A stretch of 64,000 bases of DNA from positions 194-64,193 of the forward strand of contig CAZDCZ010000003.1 of assembly GCA_964504155.1 (NCBI GenBank). The letters run 5' to 3'. Of this stretch, positions 7,748 through 19,055 are shown piece after piece. The notes beneath the pieces were generated by a model, which was not told the DNA's origin, did not search any database, and was given only the letters and a program-made list of their open reading frames with translations. Positions within the stretch are counted from its first letter, which is position 1, and the number at the start of each line of letters is the position of its first letter. The translations under genes and the position numbers were made by a program. The stretch comes from an uncultured Bacteroidales bacterium. GTDB lineage: Bacteria > Bacteroidota > Bacteroidia > Bacteroidales > UBA12077.

Positions 7748-10210
7748 ATGGGTATAAAAAGAAAGAATAAAGGAATTTTTGCAGATATTTATCTTAGTAG
7801 TGATAATGAAAATAGTGGAGAGTTTATTCCGTTAATTGCAGATGAAAACGACGAAAATTTAAATTCGGATGATGTCCCAAAAGAATTACCTATTTTACCA
7901 TTAAGAAATACTGTTCTTTTCCCCGGCGTTATTTTACCAATAACAGTTGGTAGAGATAAGTCCATTCGTTTAATAAACGAGACTTATAAGAATGGTAAAA
8001 TAATTGGAGCTATTGCTCAAAAAGATGTTGAAAATGATGACCCTGAAATAGGCGATTTATATAATGTGGGTACTGTAGCTCAAATAATCAAAGTGCTTGA
8101 AATGCCCGATGGTAGTACGTCTGTTATTATTCAAGGGAAACGACGATTTGCATTAGACGATATGGTACAAGTAGAACCTTATCATAAAGCTAATATTACT
8201 TTAATAAAAGATACTGAAATAAACGACAAAAATAAAGAATTCGACGCAATTGTTGGTTCGCTAAAAGATTTATCATTAAAAATAATAAAGCTATCTACTA
8301 ATATACCAACAGAAACATCTTTTGCCGTTAGAAATATTGAAAATGCTAAATTTCTTGTAAATTTTATTAGTTCAAATAGCGATATAAAAATTGAAGATAA
8401 ACAGAAATTACTCGAAATAAATAATCTTAAGGATAGAGCTATTCGTTTACTTGAGCATTTATCTAAAGAGATACAAATGCTAGAACTTAAAAACGATATA
8501 CAGTCGCGAGTAAAAGTAGATATCGACAAGCAGCAAAGAGAATATTTGCTTCATCAACAAATGCGTACTATTCAAGACGAACTTGGAAGTAATCCGATAG
8601 ATATTGAAATCGAAGAATTCAAGAAAAAAGCTAAAGATAAAAAGTGGAATAAAGAAATAGCTGAAATTTTCGATAAAGAACTTGGTAAGTTGCAAAGATT
8701 AAATCCTGCTGCCGGAGAGTATTCTGTTCAACTTAATTATTTGCAAACATTAATAGATTTGCCTTGGAACGAATTTACTAAAGATAATTTCGATTTAAAA
8801 CGTGCTCAGAAAATACTCGATGAAGATCATTTTGGATTAGAGAAAGTTAAGGAAAGAATTCTTGAATATCTTGCAGTTTTAAAACTTAAAGGCGATTTAA
8901 AATCTCCTATATTGTGTTTATATGGACCTCCGGGTGTAGGAAAAACTTCGCTTGGAAAATCTATTGCTCATGCTCTCGACAGAAAATATATAAGAATGTC
9001 GTTAGGAGGTTTACACGACGAAGCAGAAATTCGTGGACACAGAAAAACCTATATCGGAGCTATGCCGGGTAGAGTAATTCAAAATCTAAAAAAAACAAAA
9101 TCATCAAATCCGGTGTTTATTTTAGACGAGATAGATAAGGTAGGAAACGATTCTCATGGAGACCCTGCTTCTGCTTTACTTGAAGTGCTTGACCCTGAGC
9201 AAAATAATTCTTTTCACGATAATTATCTCGACTTGGAATACGATTTATCAAATATTATGTTTATTGCAACTGCAAATACAATAAGTACAATTAATCCTGC
9301 TTTACGCGATAGAATGGAGATGATTAATATTAGTGGTTATATTGTTGAAGAAAAAATAGAAATTGCTAAAAAACATTTAGTCCCAAAACAATTAAAAGCT
9401 CATGGATTAAAAAAGACCCAACTTAATTTTACTAAAACAGCCTTAGAATATATTATTGAGAATTATACTCGCGAATCGGGTGTTAGAACATTAGACAAAA
9501 CAATTGCTAAAGTAATTAGAAATATTGCTAAGAAAATTGCTTTCGAAGAAAAATTTAACAAATCGCTAAATACGAACGATATTCGCGAAATATTAGGTTT
9601 CCCAACTGTTTTTAAAGAAATATACGAAGGGAATAAATTTGCAGGGGTTGTTACAGGTCTTGCATGGACTGCTGTTGGTGGAGAAATATTATTTGTCGAG
9701 AGTAGTTTAAGTAAAGGAAAAGGGAGATTAACATTAACCGGAAACTTAGGCGATGTGATGAAAGAATCTGCAACTTTAGCTCTTGAATTTATTAAATCGA
9801 AAGCTAATGCTTTGGAAATACCTCAAAAAATTTTCGATAATTACAATATTCATGTTCACGTTCCAGAAGGAGCCATCCCAAAAGATGGACCATCGGCAGG
9901 TGTTACAATGGTTACATCTTTGGTGTCTGCAATAACTCAGCGTAAAATAAAGAAAAACCTTGCAATGACAGGCGAAATAACTTTGCGTGGGAAAGTATTA
10001 CCTGTTGGAGGAATAAAAGAAAAAATACTAGCAGCTAAACGTGCCGATATTAAAGAAATAGTGTTGTCGTCGGAAAATAAAAATGATATAGAAAAAATTA
10101 AAGATATATACCTTAAGGGATTAAAATTCCATTTTGTTGTTGATATAATGGATGTTCTTGATGTTGCTCTTTTATCACAAAAAGTTGATAAACCAATGAA
10201 ATTTATATAA
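7748..10210 (+). CDS. lon: ATP-dependent Lon protease (endopeptidase La)
   Basis: 820 aa. Features are the Lon N-domain (LPILPLRNTVLFPGV), Walker A GPPGVGKTS, Walker B FILDEIDK and the catalytic Ser context KDGPSAGV. Confidence 0.97.
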   Translation: MGIKRKNKGIFADIYLSSDNENSGEFIPLIADENDENLNSDDVPKELPILPLRNTVLFPGVILPITVGRDKSIRLINETYKNGKIIGAIAQKDVENDDPEIGDLYNVGTVAQIIKVLEMPDGSTSVIIQGKRRFALDDMVQVEPYHKANITLIKDTEINDKNKEFDAIVGSLKDLSLKIIKLSTNIPTETSFAVRNIENAKFLVNFISSNSDIKIEDKQKLLEINNLKDRAIRLLEHLSKEIQMLELKNDIQSRVKVDIDKQQREYLLHQQMRTIQDELGSNPIDIEIEEFKKKAKDKKWNKEIAEIFDKELGKLQRLNPAAGEYSVQLNYLQTLIDLPWNEFTKDNFDLKRAQKILDEDHFGLEKVKERILEYLAVLKLKGDLKSPILCLYGPPGVGKTSLGKSIAHALDRKYIRMSLGGLHDEAEIRGHRKTYIGAMPGRVIQNLKKTKSSNPVFILDEIDKVGNDSHGDPASALLEVLDPEQNNSFHDNYLDLEYDLSNIMFIATANTISTINPALRDRMEMINISGYIVEEKIEIAKKHLVPKQLKAHGLKKTQLNFTKTALEYIIENYTRESGVRTLDKTIAKVIRNIAKKIAFEEKFNKSLNTNDIREILGFPTVFKEIYEGNKFAGVVTGLAWTAVGGEILFVESSLSKGKGRLTLTGNLGDVMKESATLALEFIKSKANALEIPQKIFDNYNIHVHVPEGAIPKDGPSAGVTMVTSLVSAITQRKIKKNLAMTGEITLRGKVLPVGGIKEKILAAKRADIKEIVLSSENKNDIEKIKDIYLKGLKFHFVVDIMDVLDVALLSQKVDKPMKFI

Positions 10211-10232
10211 ATCATTATAAAATAGAATGCTA

Positions 10233-10266
10233 AGGCTGTAGAAATATTATTCTGCAGCTTTTTTTG
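10233..10266 (+). terminator. Rho-independent terminator after lon
   Basis: Stem gctgtaga/tctgcagc (one G-T wobble) with an 8-nt loop, followed by T7. Confidence 0.7.
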
Positions 10267-10345
10267 TGTTTGCTATTTCCAAAAAGATTAAGAATAAATG
10301 TGTAATTTGTTTGTATATTTATAGCATTAATAAAAAAAATCATTT

Positions 10346-13300
10346 ATGCAGAAAGCAAAAAAATTTGGTGCATTTGCCGGAGTATTTACTCCTTCTATTT
10401 TAACCATTCTTGGTGTTATTATGTATATGCGATTGGGCTGGGTAGTTGGAGAAGCAGGCTTAATCGGAGCAATATTAATTATAATTGTTGCTCATGTAAT
10501 ATCTATTTCTACCGGACTTAGTATTTCGTCTATTGCTACCGATAAAAAAATAAAAACAGGTGGTATATATTATATGCTGTCACGAAGCTTAGGTCTGCCA
10601 ATGGGTGGTGCAATAGGACTTTCTTTAGTTGTTGGAACAGCTTTAAGTATTTCGTTATATATAGTTGGTTTTTCAGAAAGCTTTCTTGCAGTAGAATCAA
10701 TTCGTAATTTTTTTGGTTTAGGAATTACTATTAACGATTTTAGAATTCTTGGTTCAATAGTATTAATTGTACTAGTTGCTATAGCGTTTATTAGCACATC
10801 ATTAGCAATAAGAATACAATATGTAGTATTAGCTGCTATTGCCTTGTCTCTTATTTCTATTTTTGTTGGTTTTTTTGTTAATCAAGCTTATGTTCCCGAA
10901 AATATTGTATTGTTACCTGTACGAGATGGATTGCCATTAGAATATGTATTTTCTATTTATTTTCCTGCTGTTACAGGTTTTACTGCCGGAGTGGCAATGT
11001 CGGGAGACCTTAAGAATCCTAAAAAAGATATTCCAAAAGGAACTTTATTGGCTGTTATTACAGGTTTTGTTGTTTATGTTTTGCTTTCAGTAGGCTTTGC
11101 TTTTTTTGTAAATCGCGATTTATTAATTAACGATAGTAATTTCTTAATGCAAGTAGCTTGGTTTCCTCCACTTGTAATAGCAGGAATATGGGGAGCAACA
11201 TTATCGTCTGCATTAGGCGGAATACTGGGAGCCCCAAGAATATTACAAGCAATAGCGAAAGATAAAATTGTTCCTAAAATATTATCAATAGGATATGGTA
11301 AAAATAATGAACCAAGAAATGCATTAATACTAATATTTTTAATTGCCGAAGGAGGAATATTAATTGGCGATTTAAATATAATAGCCGGAGTTGTTTCTAT
11401 GTTTTTTCTTGCATCGTATGGGTTTATAAATATTTCGTATTCCTTAGAAAGTTGGGCAAGTGTCGATTTTCGACCAAGTTTTAGAATTCCCAGGTATATC
11501 GGAATAATTGGTTTTGTTGCCTCATTTATTGTAATGTTTAAGATCGATATGGTGTCGATGATATTTGCATTTATTCTTATAGGAGCAATATATTTATTCC
11601 TGCGACATAAAAATTTTAGAAATGAATATGGTGATGTTTGGAAAAGTGTATGGTCTTCAATTATTCGAAAAGCATTAAAAAAACTTGAGTCAGGTGATAT
11701 TGAAAAACGAAATTGGCGCCCCAATATTATTTTGTTTAGTGGGGGTGCGAATTCAAGACCTCATTTAATTCGTTTAGGAAAAGCTTTGCTTGGGAATCAG
11801 GGAATATTGTCGAATTTCGATCTTATAGAAAAAAAATCGGCCAAAACATTGTTTCCCAAAAGTAAACAAATGCAAACAAAACTTGACAATTCCGAAGATG
11901 GAATATTCACACGTGTACAAGATTGTAGAGATATTTACGAAGGAATAGAAACAATATCATCTACTTACGGTTTTGCAGGTGTCGAACCTAATACTGTTTT
12001 AATGGGTTGGGGACGGCAAAGTAAAGACCCTAAACGTTTTGCACAAATGGTTGAGACTTTAAGTCAACTCGATCAGAGTATTCTTATGGTCGATTATGAT
12101 GAAGAAGTTGGTTTTGGTAAGAAAAAACTAATAGATATATGGTGGCGTGGAGCCGGGAATAATGGCAATTTTGCATTAACATTAGTTCGATTTCTTATAA
12201 TGGATGATGATTGGACTAATGCAAAAGTAAGATTGTTAGTTGTTAATCCCGAAAACGAAGATAGAGACCTGTTATTAGAGAGAACAAAAAAAATACTGAA
12301 CGACTTTAGAATTGATGTAGAAATAGTAATAATTAATAATAAAATTGAACAAAAATCATTTTACGATATTATCAGAAGAGAATCTCTAAATTCAGATTTA
12401 ATATTACTCGGATTACCAAATATTGAAAAAGGTAATGCTATAAAACTGGTTGAACAAACCAACGAATTAACAAATAATATCGGGACAGTAGTTCTTATTA
12501 AAGCATCATCGTATTTTAGCGACTTATATATTGTCGATAAAAATAAATATATTTCATCTAGAATATCACAAAAAGAATTAGATACAGAAATTTCTGTAAA
12601 AAATGTTTCATGGGAATTGAACTTTCCGAAAAATACTGTTGTATCTGAACAGTTACATTTCTTACACGACACATTAATAGCGTCGGCAGATAATTATTAC
12701 GAGAATTATGCTTACAAAGTAGCCGAAGAGAATAGTAAATTAATAGAATCAATAAAAAAACTTGTTGCTAATAATTTTGTTAATATAAAGCACGAGTTGA
12801 AAGGGAATAATAGAAATCAAAAACAAGTAATTTTTAAATACCAAACAAATATCCTTACCCGTACGAGAAAGATTATTTCTGAATTTAATAACGAAAACCT
12901 AAAATTTCAACACAATAATTTAAATCGAGGCTTATATGTATATATTGATGTATTAACAGATTTGCTTCAAAATATTCCTAATAAACTTAAAATAAAATAT
13001 TATAAAGACGATTTGTTAGTTGCTAATAACGATAGCCTTAATTTAAAATGGTATAAGCAAATTAGCAAACTAAAGATTTTCTTAGTATATGGGAAAGATA
13101 GTGTTAATTACAACATAAAATATAAAGATTTAATTTCCCAGTATATTCCTATAAAAATATATGCATTATTAGAAAAAATATTCAATAAATTAGGAGAATA
13201 CCATCTTAAATTTTCTATTGACCTTCAGAGTGCAATGAAGCATTTATCCTTAAACTTTTGGGAAATAGAAAAAAGCGCAGAAATTAATAAACTAAAACTT

Positions 13301-15526
13301 GAAACTCTTGACGAAATTGAGACAAAGATTATTAATGAACTTGATATAATAAAGAAAGCTCATTTTAAATCACATCGATCTTTGTATCAGCTATTTACTA
13401 ACGATACATCTGAAGTAATTAGAAAGATAAATAGTAAGTTTGATATATTATTGATAAATAGAGATATTAAAGTATTGTCGAAACGTACAGAAAAACGATA
13501 TAGAGCAAAGATTCTTAATATCCCAAATCAATGGTTTAGCAATCAGAAACTAATTTATAATAATAACTATATTGGAATAATGCTATTGTCATTCGAATAT
13601 AGAGTTAGGAAAATTTTTGACGAAGTAATTTCCGAAATAGAAAATATTTATGATGAATTATTGATAAATAAACTTAATGAATTTATTCTTTTCTTAAATA
13701 AATATCAGAAAGAAATAAAAAGTAATACTAAACCCGAGTTTAGTATTAATCCTGATGAATTTATTGACGAACAAAATATTTTTCAGATAAAAGAAAAATT
13801 TGAATCATCAATTAGAAAATTGAAATATGCAGTGCGTAAATTTCCTGAGAAGATTACTGTAATTTCCGATAATTCATATAATAATTATTTAATAGAACAG
13901 TTTGAAGGTGTTGATGTTTTAAATGTATCTGCTTCTCGATTGTTAGATTATATTTTACAAAACGATTTAATTGAGCCAATACAAAAATTAATAAATTCCA
14001 TTCCTGAAGATCTGAAAGCAATTCAATCTAGTAGTAGAGATATTATTAGGCATATAGATTTTAATATCCGACAAAAAGGTGTTTACGAGCATTCTGAACT
14101 TGATACTTATTTTTCTGAAATGACAGAGTTATTTGGTGAACAAAAACAAAAAACCGAAAATTTATTAAGCTTAGCCAAGAAACAAAAAACTGAAATAATT
14201 CAAAGTATAAGCAGCCAGTTAAATACAATATTTAATCAGTTATCGCATAGTTCGTTTACTAAAAGTGGTGTAAATATTAAACAATATATTAAAGAACAAA
14301 CATCATTAAAGAGAAAGTCTATTTCATTACGTACTAAGTCGAGTATAATAAACGGCTTTAAAAAACAAATAGAACAATTCTGGTATCGTCAGAGTATAGG
14401 TGTTTTAGTCTCTAAATCTGTTTCAAAAAACACATCAGGCGACACTAGAGTAAATAAAATTCTTAACTTAGTTGAACATATAAGTTTCGATAAAGCAATA
14501 ATAAATAAATTGCCATTTTATTATAAACAATTATTTCTTCGTAAACAGTATTATTATAATGAATTTTGGTTCGGAAGAGAAAAAGGACTTAAAGATGCAG
14601 AAATTGCTATTGAAAGATATAATTCAGGGTTTAAAGGAGGATTGCTGATTCTTGGAGAATCTGGAAGTGGGAAAACATTCTTTTCTCATTATATTAGTTC
14701 AAAATATTTTAATTCTCAAAATACTTATATTGTAAATCCTCCATTCTCAGGATCTATTAGTCCCAAGACATTTAAAGCTAATATTGAGAAAGCCGTGGAT
14801 GTATATGGTACTTATGACGAAATATTTGAAAAAATTCCGAAAAAGAGTGTAATAATTATCGACGATTTAGAATTGTGGTGGGAGAAGAATCTTAATGGAT
14901 ACGAAGTTGTTAAAATAATCTTAGAATTAATTAGAAATTATAGCAGTAAATGTTTTTTCATTGCTAACTTAAATACTTATACATACGAGTTTATTAAGAA
15001 AATAATAAAAATAGAAAATTCATTTCTGAATATTATTGAATGTGATTATTTTGATGCAAAGACAATTAAGAATATTGTATTGTTCCGACATAATTCGGGA
15101 AATTTAAATCTTTTAAATAGTAAGGGTGAGAAAATCAGACCAATTGGGGAAGCACGATTTTTCTCTAATATTTTTAACCTTTCGCAGGGAAATATTAATA
15201 CAGCACTTCATTTATGGCTAAGCAGTATTACAGAAATAAAAAACGATACAATAAAAATTAGAAACATTAAACACGTTGATAGTACAGTGTTATTAAATTT
15301 GCCTGCCGATTGGTATATTGTTTTAGTGCAATTGTTTTTGCATAAAAGACTTAATAGAAAAAGTTTGTCCGGGGTGTTAATGAAATCGGATATAGAGACG
15401 GACGTTCTTACCGATGCATTACTTAGAACAGGATTAATAATAGAAGAAAAAGTTAATACTTTTATAATTAATCCGCAGTTGTATATATATATTAGAAAAG
15501 CATTGATCGAGAAAAATATGATTTAA
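10346..15526 (+). CDS. Giant fusion protein: SLC12/cation-chloride cotransporter-like APC permease with CCC C-terminal domain, then about 650 aa of helical linker, then a C-terminal P-loop (AAA-like) ATPase with a possible winged-helix end
   Basis: 1,726 codons with no stop in very AT-rich DNA. The N-terminus (FGAFAGVFTPSILTILGVIMYMRLGWVVGEAG) resembles the SLC12 TM1 signature, followed by about 12 TM helices. RNWRPNIILFSGG at aa 455-467 opens the CCC cytoplasmic domain, which runs to about aa 725. Walker A GESGSGKT is at aa 1437-1444 (nt 14654-14677). Walker B IIIDDLE has its DD at aa 1506-1507. Confidence 0.8.
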   Translation: MQKAKKFGAFAGVFTPSILTILGVIMYMRLGWVVGEAGLIGAILIIIVAHVISISTGLSISSIATDKKIKTGGIYYMLSRSLGLPMGGAIGLSLVVGTALSISLYIVGFSESFLAVESIRNFFGLGITINDFRILGSIVLIVLVAIAFISTSLAIRIQYVVLAAIALSLISIFVGFFVNQAYVPENIVLLPVRDGLPLEYVFSIYFPAVTGFTAGVAMSGDLKNPKKDIPKGTLLAVITGFVVYVLLSVGFAFFVNRDLLINDSNFLMQVAWFPPLVIAGIWGATLSSALGGILGAPRILQAIAKDKIVPKILSIGYGKNNEPRNALILIFLIAEGGILIGDLNIIAGVVSMFFLASYGFINISYSLESWASVDFRPSFRIPRYIGIIGFVASFIVMFKIDMVSMIFAFILIGAIYLFLRHKNFRNEYGDVWKSVWSSIIRKALKKLESGDIEKRNWRPNIILFSGGANSRPHLIRLGKALLGNQGILSNFDLIEKKSAKTLFPKSKQMQTKLDNSEDGIFTRVQDCRDIYEGIETISSTYGFAGVEPNTVLMGWGRQSKDPKRFAQMVETLSQLDQSILMVDYDEEVGFGKKKLIDIWWRGAGNNGNFALTLVRFLIMDDDWTNAKVRLLVVNPENEDRDLLLERTKKILNDFRIDVEIVIINNKIEQKSFYDIIRRESLNSDLILLGLPNIEKGNAIKLVEQTNELTNNIGTVVLIKASSYFSDLYIVDKNKYISSRISQKELDTEISVKNVSWELNFPKNTVVSEQLHFLHDTLIASADNYYENYAYKVAEENSKLIESIKKLVANNFVNIKHELKGNNRNQKQVIFKYQTNILTRTRKIISEFNNENLKFQHNNLNRGLYVYIDVLTDLLQNIPNKLKIKYYKDDLLVANNDSLNLKWYKQISKLKIFLVYGKDSVNYNIKYKDLISQYIPIKIYALLEKIFNKLGEYHLKFSIDLQSAMKHLSLNFWEIEKSAEINKLKLETLDEIETKIINELDIIKKAHFKSHRSLYQLFTNDTSEVIRKINSKFDILLINRDIKVLSKRTEKRYRAKILNIPNQWFSNQKLIYNNNYIGIMLLSFEYRVRKIFDEVISEIENIYDELLINKLNEFILFLNKYQKEIKSNTKPEFSINPDEFIDEQNIFQIKEKFESSIRKLKYAVRKFPEKITVISDNSYNNYLIEQFEGVDVLNVSASRLLDYILQNDLIEPIQKLINSIPEDLKAIQSSSRDIIRHIDFNIRQKGVYEHSELDTYFSEMTELFGEQKQKTENLLSLAKKQKTEIIQSISSQLNTIFNQLSHSSFTKSGVNIKQYIKEQTSLKRKSISLRTKSSIINGFKKQIEQFWYRQSIGVLVSKSVSKNTSGDTRVNKILNLVEHISFDKAIINKLPFYYKQLFLRKQYYYNEFWFGREKGLKDAEIAIERYNSGFKGGLLILGESGSGKTFFSHYISSKYFNSQNTYIVNPPFSGSISPKTFKANIEKAVDVYGTYDEIFEKIPKKSVIIIDDLELWWEKNLNGYEVVKIILELIRNYSSKCFFIANLNTYTYEFIKKIIKIENSFLNIIECDYFDAKTIKNIVLFRHNSGNLNLLNSKGEKIRPIGEARFFSNIFNLSQGNINTALHLWLSSITEIKNDTIKIRNIKHVDSTVLLNLPADWYIVLVQLFLHKRLNRKSLSGVLMKSDIETDVLTDALLRTGLIIEEKVNTFIINPQLYIYIRKALIEKNMI

Positions 15527-15536
15527 TAAAAAGCTT

Positions 15537-16280
15537 ATGGATAATATTTTTGAATTTTCGGTTACATCGAATTATTTATTTCGATTTTTTATTATAATAG
15601 CCTTTTTATTCCTATTTTTTAGGATAATATCTTATGTGTTGCCATTAGTTTTTAAAAATCAGCGATATTATAAATTATTTAAAAAATATGTCCATGGAAT
15701 CGAAATTTTTGTTTGGATAATATTTCTATCAAAAGCATATTATAAATTATCTATCTCGAATCAAGTTTTTTCTATTGTTAGTCTTATAATAATAATAATT
15801 TTAGTTTTATATTTTTCGTGGTATGCCTTAAAAGATTATGTTGCGGGAGTAATTTTTAAAACATGCGGAAATGTTTATATTAACGATAATGTTCGCATAT
15901 ATAAATATACAGGAAAAATTGTAAAATTTGCTTATAGAACATTAAGTATAGAAACTACTAAAGGCGAAATAGTATATATTCCATATAGTAAAATTACAAG
16001 CAATTCGGTAGTAAAAATGAATCTAGCCGAAGCTATTAAAAGTTACTCTTTTAAATTAAAAATAAAAAAAACTAACAGTTTAGTAGATACTATAGAAAAT
16101 ATAAAAAAATCAATCATTAATTTGCCATGGTCGTCGGTTAAAAAAAAACCCGGAGTATATCCTATCGAAGAAACTAATACAAATATTATTTTTGATATTA
16201 CAGTTTATGCAATCGAAGATGACTATTTTTATAATATAGAGAATTATATAAAAGAAAAATTTGCCAATATAGAAGAATAG
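15537..16280 (+). CDS. Small MscS-family mechanosensitive ion channel-like protein
   Basis: 247 aa with three N-terminal TM helices. These are followed by the MscS beta-domain pattern LKDYVAGVIFKTCGNVYINDNVRIYKYTGKIVKFAYRTLSIETTKGEIVYIPYSKI. The start is 10 nt after the stop of the giant ORF. Confidence 0.65.
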   Translation: MDNIFEFSVTSNYLFRFFIIIAFLFLFFRIISYVLPLVFKNQRYYKLFKKYVHGIEIFVWIIFLSKAYYKLSISNQVFSIVSLIIIIILVLYFSWYALKDYVAGVIFKTCGNVYINDNVRIYKYTGKIVKFAYRTLSIETTKGEIVYIPYSKITSNSVVKMNLAEAIKSYSFKLKIKKTNSLVDTIENIKKSIINLPWSSVKKKPGVYPIEETNTNIIFDITVYAIEDDYFYNIENYIKEKFANIEE

Positions 16281-16341
16281 AAATTCTTGAAAATATCATT
16301 TCATAATACCTTATATCCGCAAATAAATCATTTAAAAAAAC

Positions 16342-16381
16342 ATCAATCATCTGTGTAAGAAATGCTTACACAGTGATTGAT
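16342..16381 (+). other. Long imperfect hairpin downstream of the MscS-like gene; possible terminator or outer end of the IS remnant
   Basis: Arms 16342-16359 and 16365-16381 (atcaatcatctgtgtaag / cttacacagtgattgat) pair with one bulged base and a 5-nt loop. There is no trailing T-run. Confidence 0.4.
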
Positions 16382-16447
16382 ATATGAATATTTTCACTTA
16401 TTTTAGTGATACCAAACAACAAAAATAGTTGTGAAATATTTACGAAC

Positions 16448-17139
16448 ATGAAAGTACAAAATTTCAAGACATCAGTAAAACCTTTTTCGGGAAATTCGAT
16501 AGTAAATTATCATTCTAACAAATCCAATACGAGTCAATTAACTGATAATGAGCTAGGTGTAAAAAATGAAGTGTGCTAGGTATCAATATAGTGAGATATT
16601 TAAAAATTGACAAATGTTTATCTTAGCGGTGGTGATGCAATAAAAGATATTACACTTACTTTAGAGAGTATCTCGAAAGTATTCCAAATAACAATATTCC
16701 TAGTGCTGATACTGTTTTGAGAGTATTTAAAGAGCTTACAACCCAAAATAGTTCTTATGTTTCAGATAGTGTATATCGTATAATTTTAACATAAACAATA
16801 AGTTTAATTTATTAAATATCAAATCGTTAAAACTGACTAATCAATTAAAATGTGGTAGTAGTTATAATTTTGATTACGACAATCAAATAAATGCAAATAA
16901 TAAGTGGGATGCAAAAACCTCATATAAAAAAAAACCAGAAAAACTATTTTTAATAAAAATGACGATTTACCTTTGCGAAAATTTGATGATAACACTCTTT
17001 TGTTTGATAAAAAAGTATCTAAAAGAAAAATTAGTAACTTTATAAGTAGTATTATTCTACAGTTTTAAATAAGAAATAAAGTAAAAATACATTTAGACTT
17101 CTAGGTTTTTAGTATTTTTATATGGTTGCGGAATTAAGG
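16448..17139 (+). mobile_element. Decayed IS1380-family-like transposase remnant (multiple frameshifts and stops, internal deletion)
   Basis: Broken frames read LSGGDAIKDITLTLE, then YLESIPNNNIPSADTVLRVFKELTTQNSSY, then YNFNINNKFNLLNIKSLKLTNQLKCGSSYNFDYDNQINANNKWDAKTSYKKKP. This is the N-terminal third of an IS1380-type DDE transposase as I recall it. It then jumps to a 154-bp tail shared with the remnant at 57743-58596. Confidence 0.6.
16986..17139 (+). repeat. 154-bp IS tail, copy A (inverted partner at 57743-57896)
   Basis: Hand alignment to the reverse complement of 57743-57896 gives 148/154 identical positions with no gaps. Confidence 0.9.
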
Positions 17140-17175
17140 CTAAACAATATAAATATTTCAATAAAAAACATAAAT

Positions 17176-17603
17176 ATGAGTAATTAATTTACAAACAAAA
17201 CAGTTACGATATTATTGAAAAATGTTTTGAAGTCCACAACAATCTTGGTCACTGATTTCTAGAAATTGTGTATAAAAAAGATGCTCTTGAATATGAATTT
17301 AGACAGGAAGAAATCCCTTTTAAAAGAGAATATATTGTAAACTATAATAAAAAAAAATTACCACATAAATTTTATGCCGATTTTGTAGTTTATGATAAAA
17401 TTATACTTGAAATAAAAGCTACATCGGGCATAGTAGATAAATTTATTGCTCAATCATTAAATTACCTGAAAGTTTCGGATAATAAATTAGCTTTAATTGT
17501 AAATTTTGGACAACTGCACTTAAACTATAAAAGAATTGTATTTGAAAATAAACTAAAAGAATATAAAAATCACAATTCGAGTATTCGCGGTGCAAATTTT
17601 TAA
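17176..17603 (+). pseudogene. GxxExxY family protein (PD-(D/E)XK nuclease-like) inactivated by a frameshift and an in-frame TGA
   Basis: The ATG at 17176 reads MSN and then a stop. The adjacent frame continues LIYKQNSYDIIEKCFEVHNNLGH*FLEIVYKKDALEYEF... The TGA at 17253-17255 replaces the Gly of the family-defining G-x-x-E-x-x-Y motif (here *FLEIVY). The remaining 111-aa ORF (17268-17603) carries the rest of the domain. Confidence 0.7.
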
Positions 17604-17615
17604 AATAATTAAAAT

Positions 17616-19055
17616 ATGAGATTAGAAAAAGATTTTATTGGAGAAAAACAGATTCCTAAAGATGCACTTTACGGAATTCATTCTGTTAGGGCTCGTGAGA
17701 ATTTTCCCGACACCAGCCCTTTTCATAAAGAATGGTATAGAGCAGTAGGTATTACAAAGCTTGCTTGCTTTTTGACATATAAAAATTTTAAATCGGCAAT
17801 AGAGAAAAAATATCCCGACACAAAACTACCAATAAGTCTTTTCTCTGATGAGATAATAAAATCCTTAATACTATCGGCAGAAGAAATTTCTCAAGGTAAA
17901 CATTTTAATAATTTCATAGTACCTGCAATACAAGGAGGTGCAGGCACAAGCATTAATATGAATATTAATGAGATATTAGCTAACCAATCCTTAAGAAATA
18001 TTAATAAAACTATAGGCGAATATAATATTATCGACCCTATTGAACATGCTAACATTTATCAATCGACAAACGATGTAATACCAACATCGTTAAAAGTAGC
18101 AACAATACAATTATTAGAAAATCTCGAAGAAGAGATAAATAAATTACGTTTATCTATTGAGAAGCTTGAAAGCGAAAGCAGAAACAAATTACGAATTGCA
18201 TATACTCAAATGCAAGAAGCTGTTCCCTCATCGTATGCAATGCTATTTAGCTCATATAACGAAGCTCTATCGCGCGACTGGTGGAGAGTCTCGAAATGTT
18301 TCGAACGAATAAAAATCGTTAATTTAGGCGGAAGTGCAATAGGAACAGGGATTTCTGTTCCACGATATTTTATAATGGAAGTAGTTACTACTTTACAACG
18401 ACTTACAAATTTACCTATTACTCGCAGCGAAAATATGTCGGATACAACAAGCAACACCGATAGTTTTGTTGAAGTACACGCTATTTTAAAAGCGCATGCC
18501 GTAAATCTCGAAAAAATGGTTTCCGACATTCGTTTGCTCTCTTCCGATATCACAGGAAACAAAGAAATCTCAATTCCACAAAAACAAGTAGGAAGCTCAA
18601 TAATGCCGGGAAAAGTAAATCCTGTAATCCCCGAGTTTGTTATCAGCGCAGCACATAAGATATACAGTAACGACATGTTAATTTCGTCGCTAAGTGCTCA
18701 GGGATGTCTCGACTTAAATGCCTATTTACCGGTTATAGGAAATGCTTTATTAGAAAGTATTAAATTACTTATTGCAGCAGATAAAACATTACGAGAAAAT
18801 TTATTTAGTAATATTATTATCGATAATAAAAAAGCTGAAAAACGACTATTTTATAGTCATGCAATAACTACAGCTTTAAGTCCGTTTATTGGCTATAACA
18901 AAGCTTCGGAACTTGCAAAAGAAATGAAAAAATCGAATACAAATATCTTTGAAGCTAACACTAAACTAAAAATTATCGATTCAAATAAATTAAAGAATAT
19001 TCTTGCTCCTCAAAATCTTTTAAAAATGGGATTTACAATCGACGAGATAATATAA
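17616..19055 (+). CDS. Class II fumarase/aspartase family lyase, aspartate ammonia-lyase-like
   Basis: 479 aa. The N-terminus MRLEKDFIGEKQIPKDALYGIHSVRARENF matches the family. Other matches are QGGAGTSINMNINEILAN, QSTNDVIPT and the signature GSSIMPGKVNP. Confidence 0.8.
   Translation: MRLEKDFIGEKQIPKDALYGIHSVRARENFPDTSPFHKEWYRAVGITKLACFLTYKNFKSAIEKKYPDTKLPISLFSDEIIKSLILSAEEISQGKHFNNFIVPAIQGGAGTSINMNINEILANQSLRNINKTIGEYNIIDPIEHANIYQSTNDVIPTSLKVATIQLLENLEEEINKLRLSIEKLESESRNKLRIAYTQMQEAVPSSYAMLFSSYNEALSRDWWRVSKCFERIKIVNLGGSAIGTGISVPRYFIMEVVTTLQRLTNLPITRSENMSDTTSNTDSFVEVHAILKAHAVNLEKMVSDIRLLSSDITGNKEISIPQKQVGSSIMPGKVNPVIPEFVISAAHKIYSNDMLISSLSAQGCLDLNAYLPVIGNALLESIKLLIAADKTLRENLFSNIIIDNKKAEKRLFYSHAITTALSPFIGYNKASELAKEMKKSNTNIFEANTKLKIIDSNKLKNILAPQNLLKMGFTIDEII

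Follow-up and report, generated by a model that had tools for sequence, protein, structure and literature searches.

We analysed a 64,000-nucleotide stretch of DNA (hereafter the window) from an uncultured Bacteroidales bacterium (assembly GCA_964504155.1, contig CAZDCZ010000003.1). On its forward strand, at 10346..15526, an open reading frame (ORF) with an ATG start and 1726 codons encodes a cation-chloride cotransporter (CCC, SLC12 family) fused to a C-terminal extension, which consists of a flexible tether, a long-helix domain, an AAA+ module and a winged helix. Ten nucleotides after the stop codon, a second gene on the same strand (15537..16280) encodes a small MscS-like channel protein of 247 amino acids. 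The CCC transporter, the AAA+ switch and the MscS channel are of known kinds; new are the fusion family and the domain of predicted novel fold. The feature that defines the family is a two-gene core, the long-helix/AAA+ protein and the MscS-like channel, which is attached to cation transporters. An initial annotation of this DNA had the architecture of the fused protein right, but it overlooked the downstream MscS-like gene and the stand-alone extensions that are paired with such a gene in other genomes.

The ORF is one real gene and is under purifying selection throughout. The G+C content of the DNA is 23-33% (~29% overall), from which we estimated ~0.08 stops per random codon. At ~29% G+C the chance of 1726 stop-free codons is roughly 1e-60, as estimated from composition, and together with the translation this upheld the earlier claim of a single coding frame. 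The same 1726-residue protein, 100% identical, was called on 14 contigs of independent ENA, JGI, NCBI and Logan assemblies (ENA ERZ27248162, JGI 3300021493 and 3300021488, NCBI GCA_054000615.1 and two Logan runs). Homologues with 77% and 27% identity over the extension are 1722-1726 residues long, have the same architecture and align collinearly with few indels. We also collected 80 metagenome loci, chosen for their closeness to the window. In all 46 of those whose sequence reaches 4.4 kb or more beyond the ATPase domain on the upstream side, one stop-free frame spans the CCC, linker and AAA parts. The initial annotation had feared that a stop or an indel had been overlooked near codon 725-735; these three results speak against it. 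Comparison of the window with another locus (L002) by the Nei-Gojobori method gave ratios of nonsynonymous to synonymous substitution (dN/dS) of 0.139 for the transmembrane (TM) core, 0.078 for the CCC C-terminal domain, 0.138 for the linker and 0.127 for the AAA+ module with the winged helix. The value for the linker, which looks like low-complexity sequence, shows that it is constrained protein sequence and not junk. Within the ORF the G+C fraction is ~0.32 over the CCC part and drops to 0.23-0.25 over the linker (12500-14000), in keeping with the weak conservation of the linker and its richness in K, N and I. It does not point to a horizontal insertion, because the dN/dS of the linker is as low as elsewhere in the ORF.

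By homology, residues 1-722 are a complete SLC12/CCC transporter, as had been proposed for residues 1 to ~725. The TM core of the APC/LeuT fold covers aa 1-440 (10346..11665) and the cytoplasmic C-terminal domain (C-domain) covers aa ~455-722 (11708..12511). The TM1-like segment FGAFAGVFTPSILTILGVIMYMRLGWVVGEAG at aa 7-38 and the start of the C-domain, RNWRPNIILFSGG, at aa ~455 were both found in the translation where they had been reported. PF00324 (AA_permease) matched aa 13-423 with an E value of 3e-50. TIGR00930 aligned with aa 2-672 (E=2.6e-124) at 416 bits versus a model cutoff of 953, and we read this score as homology to the CCC family, not as membership of the 'K-Cl cotransporter' subfamily that the model describes. 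A phmmer search against PDB sequences retrieved the NKCC1, KCC1-4 and NCC structures with E values of 1e-86 to 1e-64; the KCC3 and KCC4 alignments reach aa ~709, and relatives of the window protein match PF03522 (SLC12). No hydrophobic segment was found after aa 423 in a scan of the 1726-residue protein, in agreement with the earlier statement that the linker contains no TM segment.

Residue-level alignment to human NKCC1 (hNKCC1), which also supports the boundaries of the TM core, allowed us to transfer the ion ligands. We took their roles from a structural study (bioRxiv 10.1101/2021.11.11.468215), in which the Na+ ligands are S613 and S614 (with the A610 backbone), the K+ ligands are Y383 and T499 (with P496), and Y686 and Y533 serve Cl-. 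The corresponding window residues are S287 and S288 (A284) at the Na+ site, Y105 and T210 (P207) at the K+ site, Y358 at Cl- site 2 (hNKCC1 Y686) and Y244 in the network of Cl- site 1 (hNKCC1 Y533). Together with L19/T20/I21/L22 they make up an NKCC-type set in the TM core. Each ion-site residue is kept in 101-104 of 104 full-length family members (102-104 for S287/S288, Y105/T210 and Y358), and the CCC part as a whole is 53% identical across the family. KCCs are not known to have the paired serines of the Na+ site. The transporter is thus probably NKCC-type, and because all NKCC1 side-chain ligands are present, including the paired serines, the CCC part would carry out Na+-coupled K+/Cl- uptake.

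Compared with NKCC1 (SLC12A2) and the KCCs, the window protein has the same 12-TM LeuT-fold core and two-lobed cytoplasmic C-domain, all Na+/K+/Cl- ligand positions and, like the C-domains of KCC1 and NKCC1, a link to adenine nucleotides. It differs in being bacterial and operon-linked to an MscS-like gene. It starts only 6 residues before TM1 and therefore lacks the N-terminal phospho-regulatory arm of the eukaryotic proteins. MaCCC of Methanosarcina acetivorans, whose C-domain structure was reportedly determined by Warmuth and colleagues in 2009 (cited in PMC4301019), is likewise a prokaryotic CCC with a conserved C-domain, but it ends after that domain and is not known to have a helical/AAA+ extension. 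To our knowledge, an AAA+ extension of ~1000 residues at the C-terminus is found in no characterised CCC.

The fusion seam is a flexible tether at aa ~723-763 (12512..12634), where an AlphaFold2 model of the linker had a predicted local distance difference test score (pLDDT) of 35-53 over its first ~30 residues. The long-helix domain follows at aa ~764-1361 (12635..14428). Modelled by AlphaFold2 with a 43-sequence alignment (mean pLDDT 83.8, predicted TM-score [pTM] 0.74), it has ~10 helices of 25-80 residues and two small beta-hairpin inserts, and tethers of low confidence flank it at ~726-763 and ~1354-1373. The linker had been described as probably helical and of no recognised family, and both points held. 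Foldseek searches with this model gave as best matches E=0.17 against PDB (TM-score ~0.1, generic long-helix noise) and E=0.18 against BFVD; Pfam and NCBIfam scans of the domain gave no match, and a search of PDB sequences with a profile of the extension returned nothing significant. The model therefore points to a novel fold that belongs to no known family. Across the family the region has a mean identity of only 19%, with few gaps and its length kept. When the two halves of the domain were compared with hhalign, a weak profile-profile similarity was obtained (probability 51%, E=1.6e-4), so that the domain possibly arose by internal duplication.

The C-terminal module begins with an LPFYYxQLF / FWxGRExE leader and an AAA+ alpha-beta-alpha base (aa ~1383-1565, 14492..15040), which carries the Walker A motif GESGSGKT (aa 1437-1444, 14654..14677) and the Walker B motif VIIIDDLE (aa 1502-1509, 14849..14872), the latter followed by the family signature LWWE. 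Both Walker motifs are at the residues previously quoted. The AAA+ lid (aa ~1571-1626, 15056..15223) and the C-terminal winged helix (aa ~1628-1726, 15227..15523) complete it. An AlphaFold2 model of aa 1380-1726, built with a 71-sequence alignment, had a mean pLDDT of 94 and a pTM of 0.90, and Foldseek found 560 PDB matches to it at E<=1e-3. The best were Thermotoga RuvB (6e-11) and Sulfolobus Orc1/Cdc6 (7.5e-11, TM-score 0.53). Small subunits of RFC and eukaryotic ORC/Cdc6 subunits were also among the best matches, in which the whole model was aligned with E values up to 1e-8. Judged from this model, aa ~1383-1726 are an AAA+ base, a lid and a winged helix of the ORC/Cdc6/STAND type, as the initial annotation had suspected.

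Sequence matches of the module were weaker. The AAA region of the window protein scored 23.4 bits with Pfam AAA_16 (cutoff 32.6) and was under every Pfam cutoff, whereas the family consensus exceeded the cutoffs of AAA_16 (37.7 versus 32.6 bits) and AAA_22 (32.4 versus 27). Six of ten family members matched AAA_16/AAA_22 at E<=0.01. A search of PDB chains with the family profile of the AAA domain found nothing significant. Conservation within the family is strong at the nucleotide-binding motifs. G1442 is invariant (71 of 71 members), K1443 is a lysine in 96 of 104 fused members and in 62 of the 71 of a mixed set, D1507 and E1509 are each kept in 64 of 71, and W1511/W1512 occur in 94-98% of members, within the Walker B motif 'DDLELWWE'. 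An N-rich sensor-1 strand is also conserved. In the lid, R1581 of the first helix is invariant (71 of 71), as are H1582 and W1624, and in the winged helix H1666 is near-invariant within LHKRL. The Walker B motif resembles the 'DDLxW' of the AAA_16 type, and we take the winged-helix histidine to be reminiscent of the MHD histidine of STAND/NOD modules.

The module shares with Orc1/Cdc6 and RuvB a three-domain fold over all 347 residues (Foldseek E 6e-11 to 1e-8, TM-scores 0.45-0.54) and, by eye, the GRExE leader before Walker A and the 'PF..eEL..IIL.R' lid motif. Unlike them, it has no sequence match in PDB and no evident arginine finger or sensor-2 arginine, and it is attached to a membrane transporter. 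With the AAA_16/STAND NTPases (MalT-like, NOD) it has in common that its family consensus passes the AAA_16 cutoff, the 'DDLxxWW' Walker B motif and the order of nucleotide-binding domain, lid and winged helix. However, the ATPase of the window protein stands at the extreme C-terminus and no sensor repeats come after it, since Pfam and NCBIfam scans found no repeat families.

The initial annotation had not recognised the fusion from any family, which made it look like a rarity. This proved wrong. When a profile of the extension was searched against 1.84 billion representative proteins, 2,587 proteins matched at E<=1e-3, and 526 representative clusters (50% identity) matched at E<=1e-30. Among the 150 best of the 2,587 matches, most have 1,690-1,735 residues, of which the extension occupies ~740-1720. 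The CCC-extension fusion is thus widespread. Its family is large, with hundreds of 50%-identity clusters, and unannotated, and among its forms the fused one is the commonest. In GenBank and IMG its members have generic names ('amino acid transporter', 'amino acid permease', 'ATP-binding protein', 'hypothetical'). The named members are all from metagenome-assembled genomes (MAGs), assigned to Bacteroidota, Gemmatimonadota, Myxococcota and one Hyphomicrobiales bin. Neither a CCC-AAA+ fusion nor an MscS-AAA+ pair turned up in the literature, of which our coverage was incomplete, so that this is absence of evidence only. As far as we found, then, the architecture is not that of an already characterised family. 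Narrower searches were less productive. Protein word-index searches with the whole extension and with a 39-sequence alignment returned the same 4 proteins each (the search with the alignment did not return sequences within that query), and a scan of a genome collection with peptide patterns, which were too specific, found one MAG locus.

The extension also exists without the transporter. A word-index search with a C-terminal consensus found many stand-alone extension proteins of 926-996 residues on long contigs; it yielded only stand-alone or fragmentary members and no fused proteins of ~1700 residues, so that its ratio of forms is not a frequency. The initiator methionine of the stand-alone proteins aligns with aa ~750-771 of the window protein, that is, with the disordered tether. 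A comparison of fused and split orthologues had been proposed as a check: the orthologues are mostly fused, as we have described, while L014 has a split operon in which a CCC of 742 residues, an extension of 970 residues and an MscS-like protein of 236 residues are encoded, in this order, by genes whose starts and stops overlap. Such a pair of fused and split genes is Rosetta-stone evidence, which argues that the extension would work physically with the CCC C-domain. Next to the split operon, L014 (1902-3569 and 672-1833) has a second MscS channel gene, which is full-size (555 aa) and runs in the other direction, as well as a pair of encapsulin (Linocin_M18) and EncFtn genes. One stand-alone clade, P0236-P0239 (for example L096 5001-7931), has methionine in place of the Walker A lysine ('SGMTSL') and keeps the equivalents of R1581, W1624 and G1442; its MscS partner is larger, at 368 residues. 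This clade is a probable pseudo-ATPase branch.

The product of the gene downstream of the fused gene matched PF00924 (MS_channel_2nd) at aa 98-159 with an E value of 2e-9 and 37.8 bits versus a cutoff of 20.2. A TM3-like motif 'W..L+D.vAG' and the motif 'G.I..i..r...l.t..Ge.v.IPyS' are conserved in its alignment, which points to the pore-lining TM3 and the beta-domain of the MscS family. In L001 the fused gene is followed by an orthologue that is 32% identical from end to end, and L002 likewise has one in this place. An MscS-like gene lies directly downstream of the fused gene in 64 of the 75 metagenome loci with enough downstream sequence and within 2.8 kb in 3 more. Stand-alone extensions keep this partner: an MscS-family gene follows directly in 7 of 8 contexts (P0196, P0193, P0201, P0238, P0240, P0224 and P0210), and a divergent MscS-family candidate follows the stand-alone P0233. 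The MscS-like partners of the family span 236-368 residues. The MscS TM3 and beta-domain core is shared with MscK and the cyclic-nucleotide-gated bCNG channels, which are MscS-family channels with regulatory additions. Here the candidate regulator is not part of the channel but a separate AAA+ protein of ~980 residues or a transporter fusion, and the channel is minimal.

The neighbouring transporters are less constant. Na_H_Exchanger genes are adjacent to or near pairs with a stand-alone extension (L010-L012, L015, L099) and lie divergently upstream of four fused genes (L045, L084, L085, L094), and a Na_H_Exchanger-Usp fusion adjoins one stand-alone member. One pair of stand-alone extension and MscS-like genes sits between trehalose synthase and amylase genes on one side and a sugar ABC transporter on the other. 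Because the pairing with the MscS-like gene is constant while the transporter partner varies, the extension and the MscS-like protein are the core of the system, and the transporter is a variable third partner: a fused CCC, a separate CCC or a nearby Na+/H+ exchanger. In L094 (Ga0316201_10001168), a second match to the CCC TM domain begins 71 nt after the fused gene on the same strand, and the MscS-like gene follows only behind it, ~2.3 kb downstream; the transporter may have been duplicated inside this operon.

The remaining genes around the module in the window are housekeeping genes, with a Lon protease upstream and a fumarase-family lyase downstream, and the region is not a defence island. 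The upstream gene (7748-10261 region) encodes a canonical Lon protease with LON_substr_bdg, AAA and Lon_C matches. It is followed by a terminator-like hairpin (10232..10261, forward strand) with a 12-bp stem and a T-rich tail; this is a consensus match, and it would mark the upstream edge of the transcription unit. The Lon gene is placed outside the module because its adjacency is not kept in L001 or L002. Between the MscS-like gene and the next gene, ~1 kb (16281-17267) contains no ORF of at least 60 codons and has no Rfam match at E<=1, and only genes of 43 and 58 aa were called there in other assemblies. An Rfam scan over 9900-17700 found no match and hence no riboswitch. A GTG-start ORF of 111 aa (17268-17603) encodes a PD-(D/E)XK_3 protein (PF13366, 8e-19) directly upstream of the lyase gene, which belongs to the fumarase/aspartase family. 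A PDDEXK_3 gene also lies near the stand-alone member in L096, probably by coincidence.

These arrangements led us to propose that the extension is a nucleotide-dependent regulatory scaffold, by which salt uptake would be linked to release through an MscS-type valve in ion and volume homeostasis. We regard this proposal as evenly poised between right and wrong. According to it, the CCC C-domain would have been joined by a tether of ~40 residues to a pre-existing cytoplasmic protein of ~980 residues. The extension would hold the salt-uptake transporter and the MscS-type valve in one complex and would set the activities of both according to the cytoplasmic state, that is, ATP/ADP and possibly ionic strength or crowding. 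The whole would be a module for bacterial salt and volume homeostasis. The integrity of the gene, the identities and folds of its domains, the conservation of the ion sites and ATPase motifs, the existence of fused, split and stand-alone forms and the pairing with the MscS-like gene are observed; the formation of a complex, the way in which regulation would run, the signal that would act on it and any hydrolysis of ATP beyond its binding are inferred.

The principle has precedent. The initial annotation did not expect an NTPase on a CCC, but the view that these transporters have nothing to do with nucleotides is dated, as the C-domains of KCC1 and NKCC1 bind ATP/ADP in a USP-like pocket that resembles osmoregulatory TeaD (PMC8280820). 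USP-regulated osmolyte transporters and the Na_H_Exchanger-Usp neighbour described above offer further parallels. In KtrAB and TrkAH with their RCK rings, in the USP-regulated TeaABC and in the Usp-fused NhaP, as in the proteins studied here, a nucleotide-binding module in the cytoplasm is joined to a secondary transporter of cations or osmolytes or is encoded beside it. The present module differs in its AAA+ fold (versus Rossmann/RCK or USP), in its much larger size with a helical domain of 600 residues, and in its obligate MscS-like partner.

Several observations weigh against this proposal. The assigned function rests on architecture and synteny, and we found no experiment on the family and no characterised homologue of it. 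The 80 loci are those nearest to the window and not an unbiased sample. Eight of the 75 loci gave no MscS-like match with the small hidden Markov model that was used, and next to the stand-alone P0010 there is no MscS-like gene and no transporter gene. The ATP-gated transporter suggested by the initial annotation is a hypothesis. At the position of the Walker A lysine, 8 of the 104 fused members have R, N or A, and a divergent clade of stand-alone proteins has M, T, C or L. Because of these replacements, in ~8% of fused members and in that clade, ATP turnover cannot be essential throughout the family; hydrolysis, and in some lineages binding, is dispensable. Inspection of the family alignment by eye revealed no conserved arginine finger between sensor 1 and strand 5, and 'GNIGVAL' has a glycine at the position of the sensor-2 arginine in 'GDARxAL' of Cdc6. 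The lack of both argues against a classical ring ATPase, and we read the AAA+ module as a nucleotide-binding switch and not as a ring motor.

A stronger version of the proposal is that the extension and the MscS-like protein form an unrecognised cell-volume and salt machine, in which an Orc/STAND-like switch on a new helical fold directly gates the MscS-family channel and, when fused or co-encoded, the NKCC-type cotransporter or the Na+/H+ exchanger. We put this forward tentatively, as the less probable of the two. If true, it would be a prokaryotic counterpart of the kinase-based regulation of CCCs in eukaryotes.

The extension might instead be a passive scaffold or cytoskeleton-like anchor, which clusters or localises the transporter and the channel (in membrane patches or at a pole) without control of their activity and uses nucleotide only for assembly and disassembly. 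The elongated helical domain of ~600 residues, with its low sequence conservation (19%) and conserved length, would suit such a role, and some lineages do without the Walker A lysine. CCCs assemble as dimers and MscS channels as heptamers, which makes a multivalent scaffold plausible. On the other hand, the strong conservation of the nucleotide-binding motifs, R1581, W1624 and H1666 suggests a conformational switch and not an inert strut, and the Foldseek searches against PDB and BFVD found no likeness to known cytoskeletal or SMC-like folds. We consider the passive scaffold unlikely.

Whether the protein binds DNA was considered next to the regulatory scaffold, because the nearest folds, Orc1/Cdc6 and RuvB, do so. 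The winged-helix region gave weak matches to TrmB, RepL and, with the family consensus, HTH_Crp_2 and MCM_WH, and a membrane-tethered protein of this kind could be a transcriptional regulator under ion-flux control or a nucleoid-membrane tether. However, every one of these matches is far under its family cutoff, and the winged helices of STAND/NOD modules are established to contact nucleotide or protein and not DNA. The extension gene is, moreover, paired tightly with a membrane channel gene and not with regulated target operons. Conserved DNA repeats were not noticed around the gene, although no search was aimed at them. A DNA-binding role is therefore quite improbable.

It is more improbable still that the system acts in anti-phage defence or abortive infection, where a STAND-like NTPase would sense infection and the CCC and the MscS-like protein would be depolarising effectors. 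STAND NTPases are often paired with membrane effectors in defence systems, and the extension has weak matches to nSTAND3, AAA_16 and the N-termini of BrxC/BrxD. Nevertheless, none of the PADLOC-DB 2.0 models was matched (E<=0.01) by the extension, by the MscS-like protein or by the stand-alone homologues P0196 and P0193. The almost perfect retention of the ion ligands, the high identity of the CCC part, the neighbouring housekeeping or ion/osmolyte genes, the missing C-terminal sensor repeats and the low dN/dS everywhere also speak against it. Finally, that the ORF is an artefact, in which an error of sequencing or assembly near codon 725-760 joined neighbouring permease and ATPase genes, has a negligible probability and is ruled out by the 14 independent contigs and the 46 in-frame loci; the split arrangement does occur in at least one relative (L014), but the fusion is kept even at 27% identity over the extension.

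Animal cells regulate their CCCs for cell volume and chloride through the WNK-SPAK kinases, and the role of nucleotide binding by the C-domain is unclear (PMC8280820). The regulation of bacterial CCCs is little known, and only the structure of a C-domain has been solved. The family described here has been overlooked: it is abundant in metagenomes, occurs in several phyla and was missed by annotation pipelines under generic names. It offers a compact, probably NKCC-type bacterial transporter with a full ion-site set, which is suited to structural and biophysical work, and a built-in AAA+ regulator of a wholly different kind on a domain that, as modelled, has no known fold. Since the family ties a salt-uptake transporter genetically to an MscS-type valve, the way in which uptake is coordinated with emergency release can be tested directly.

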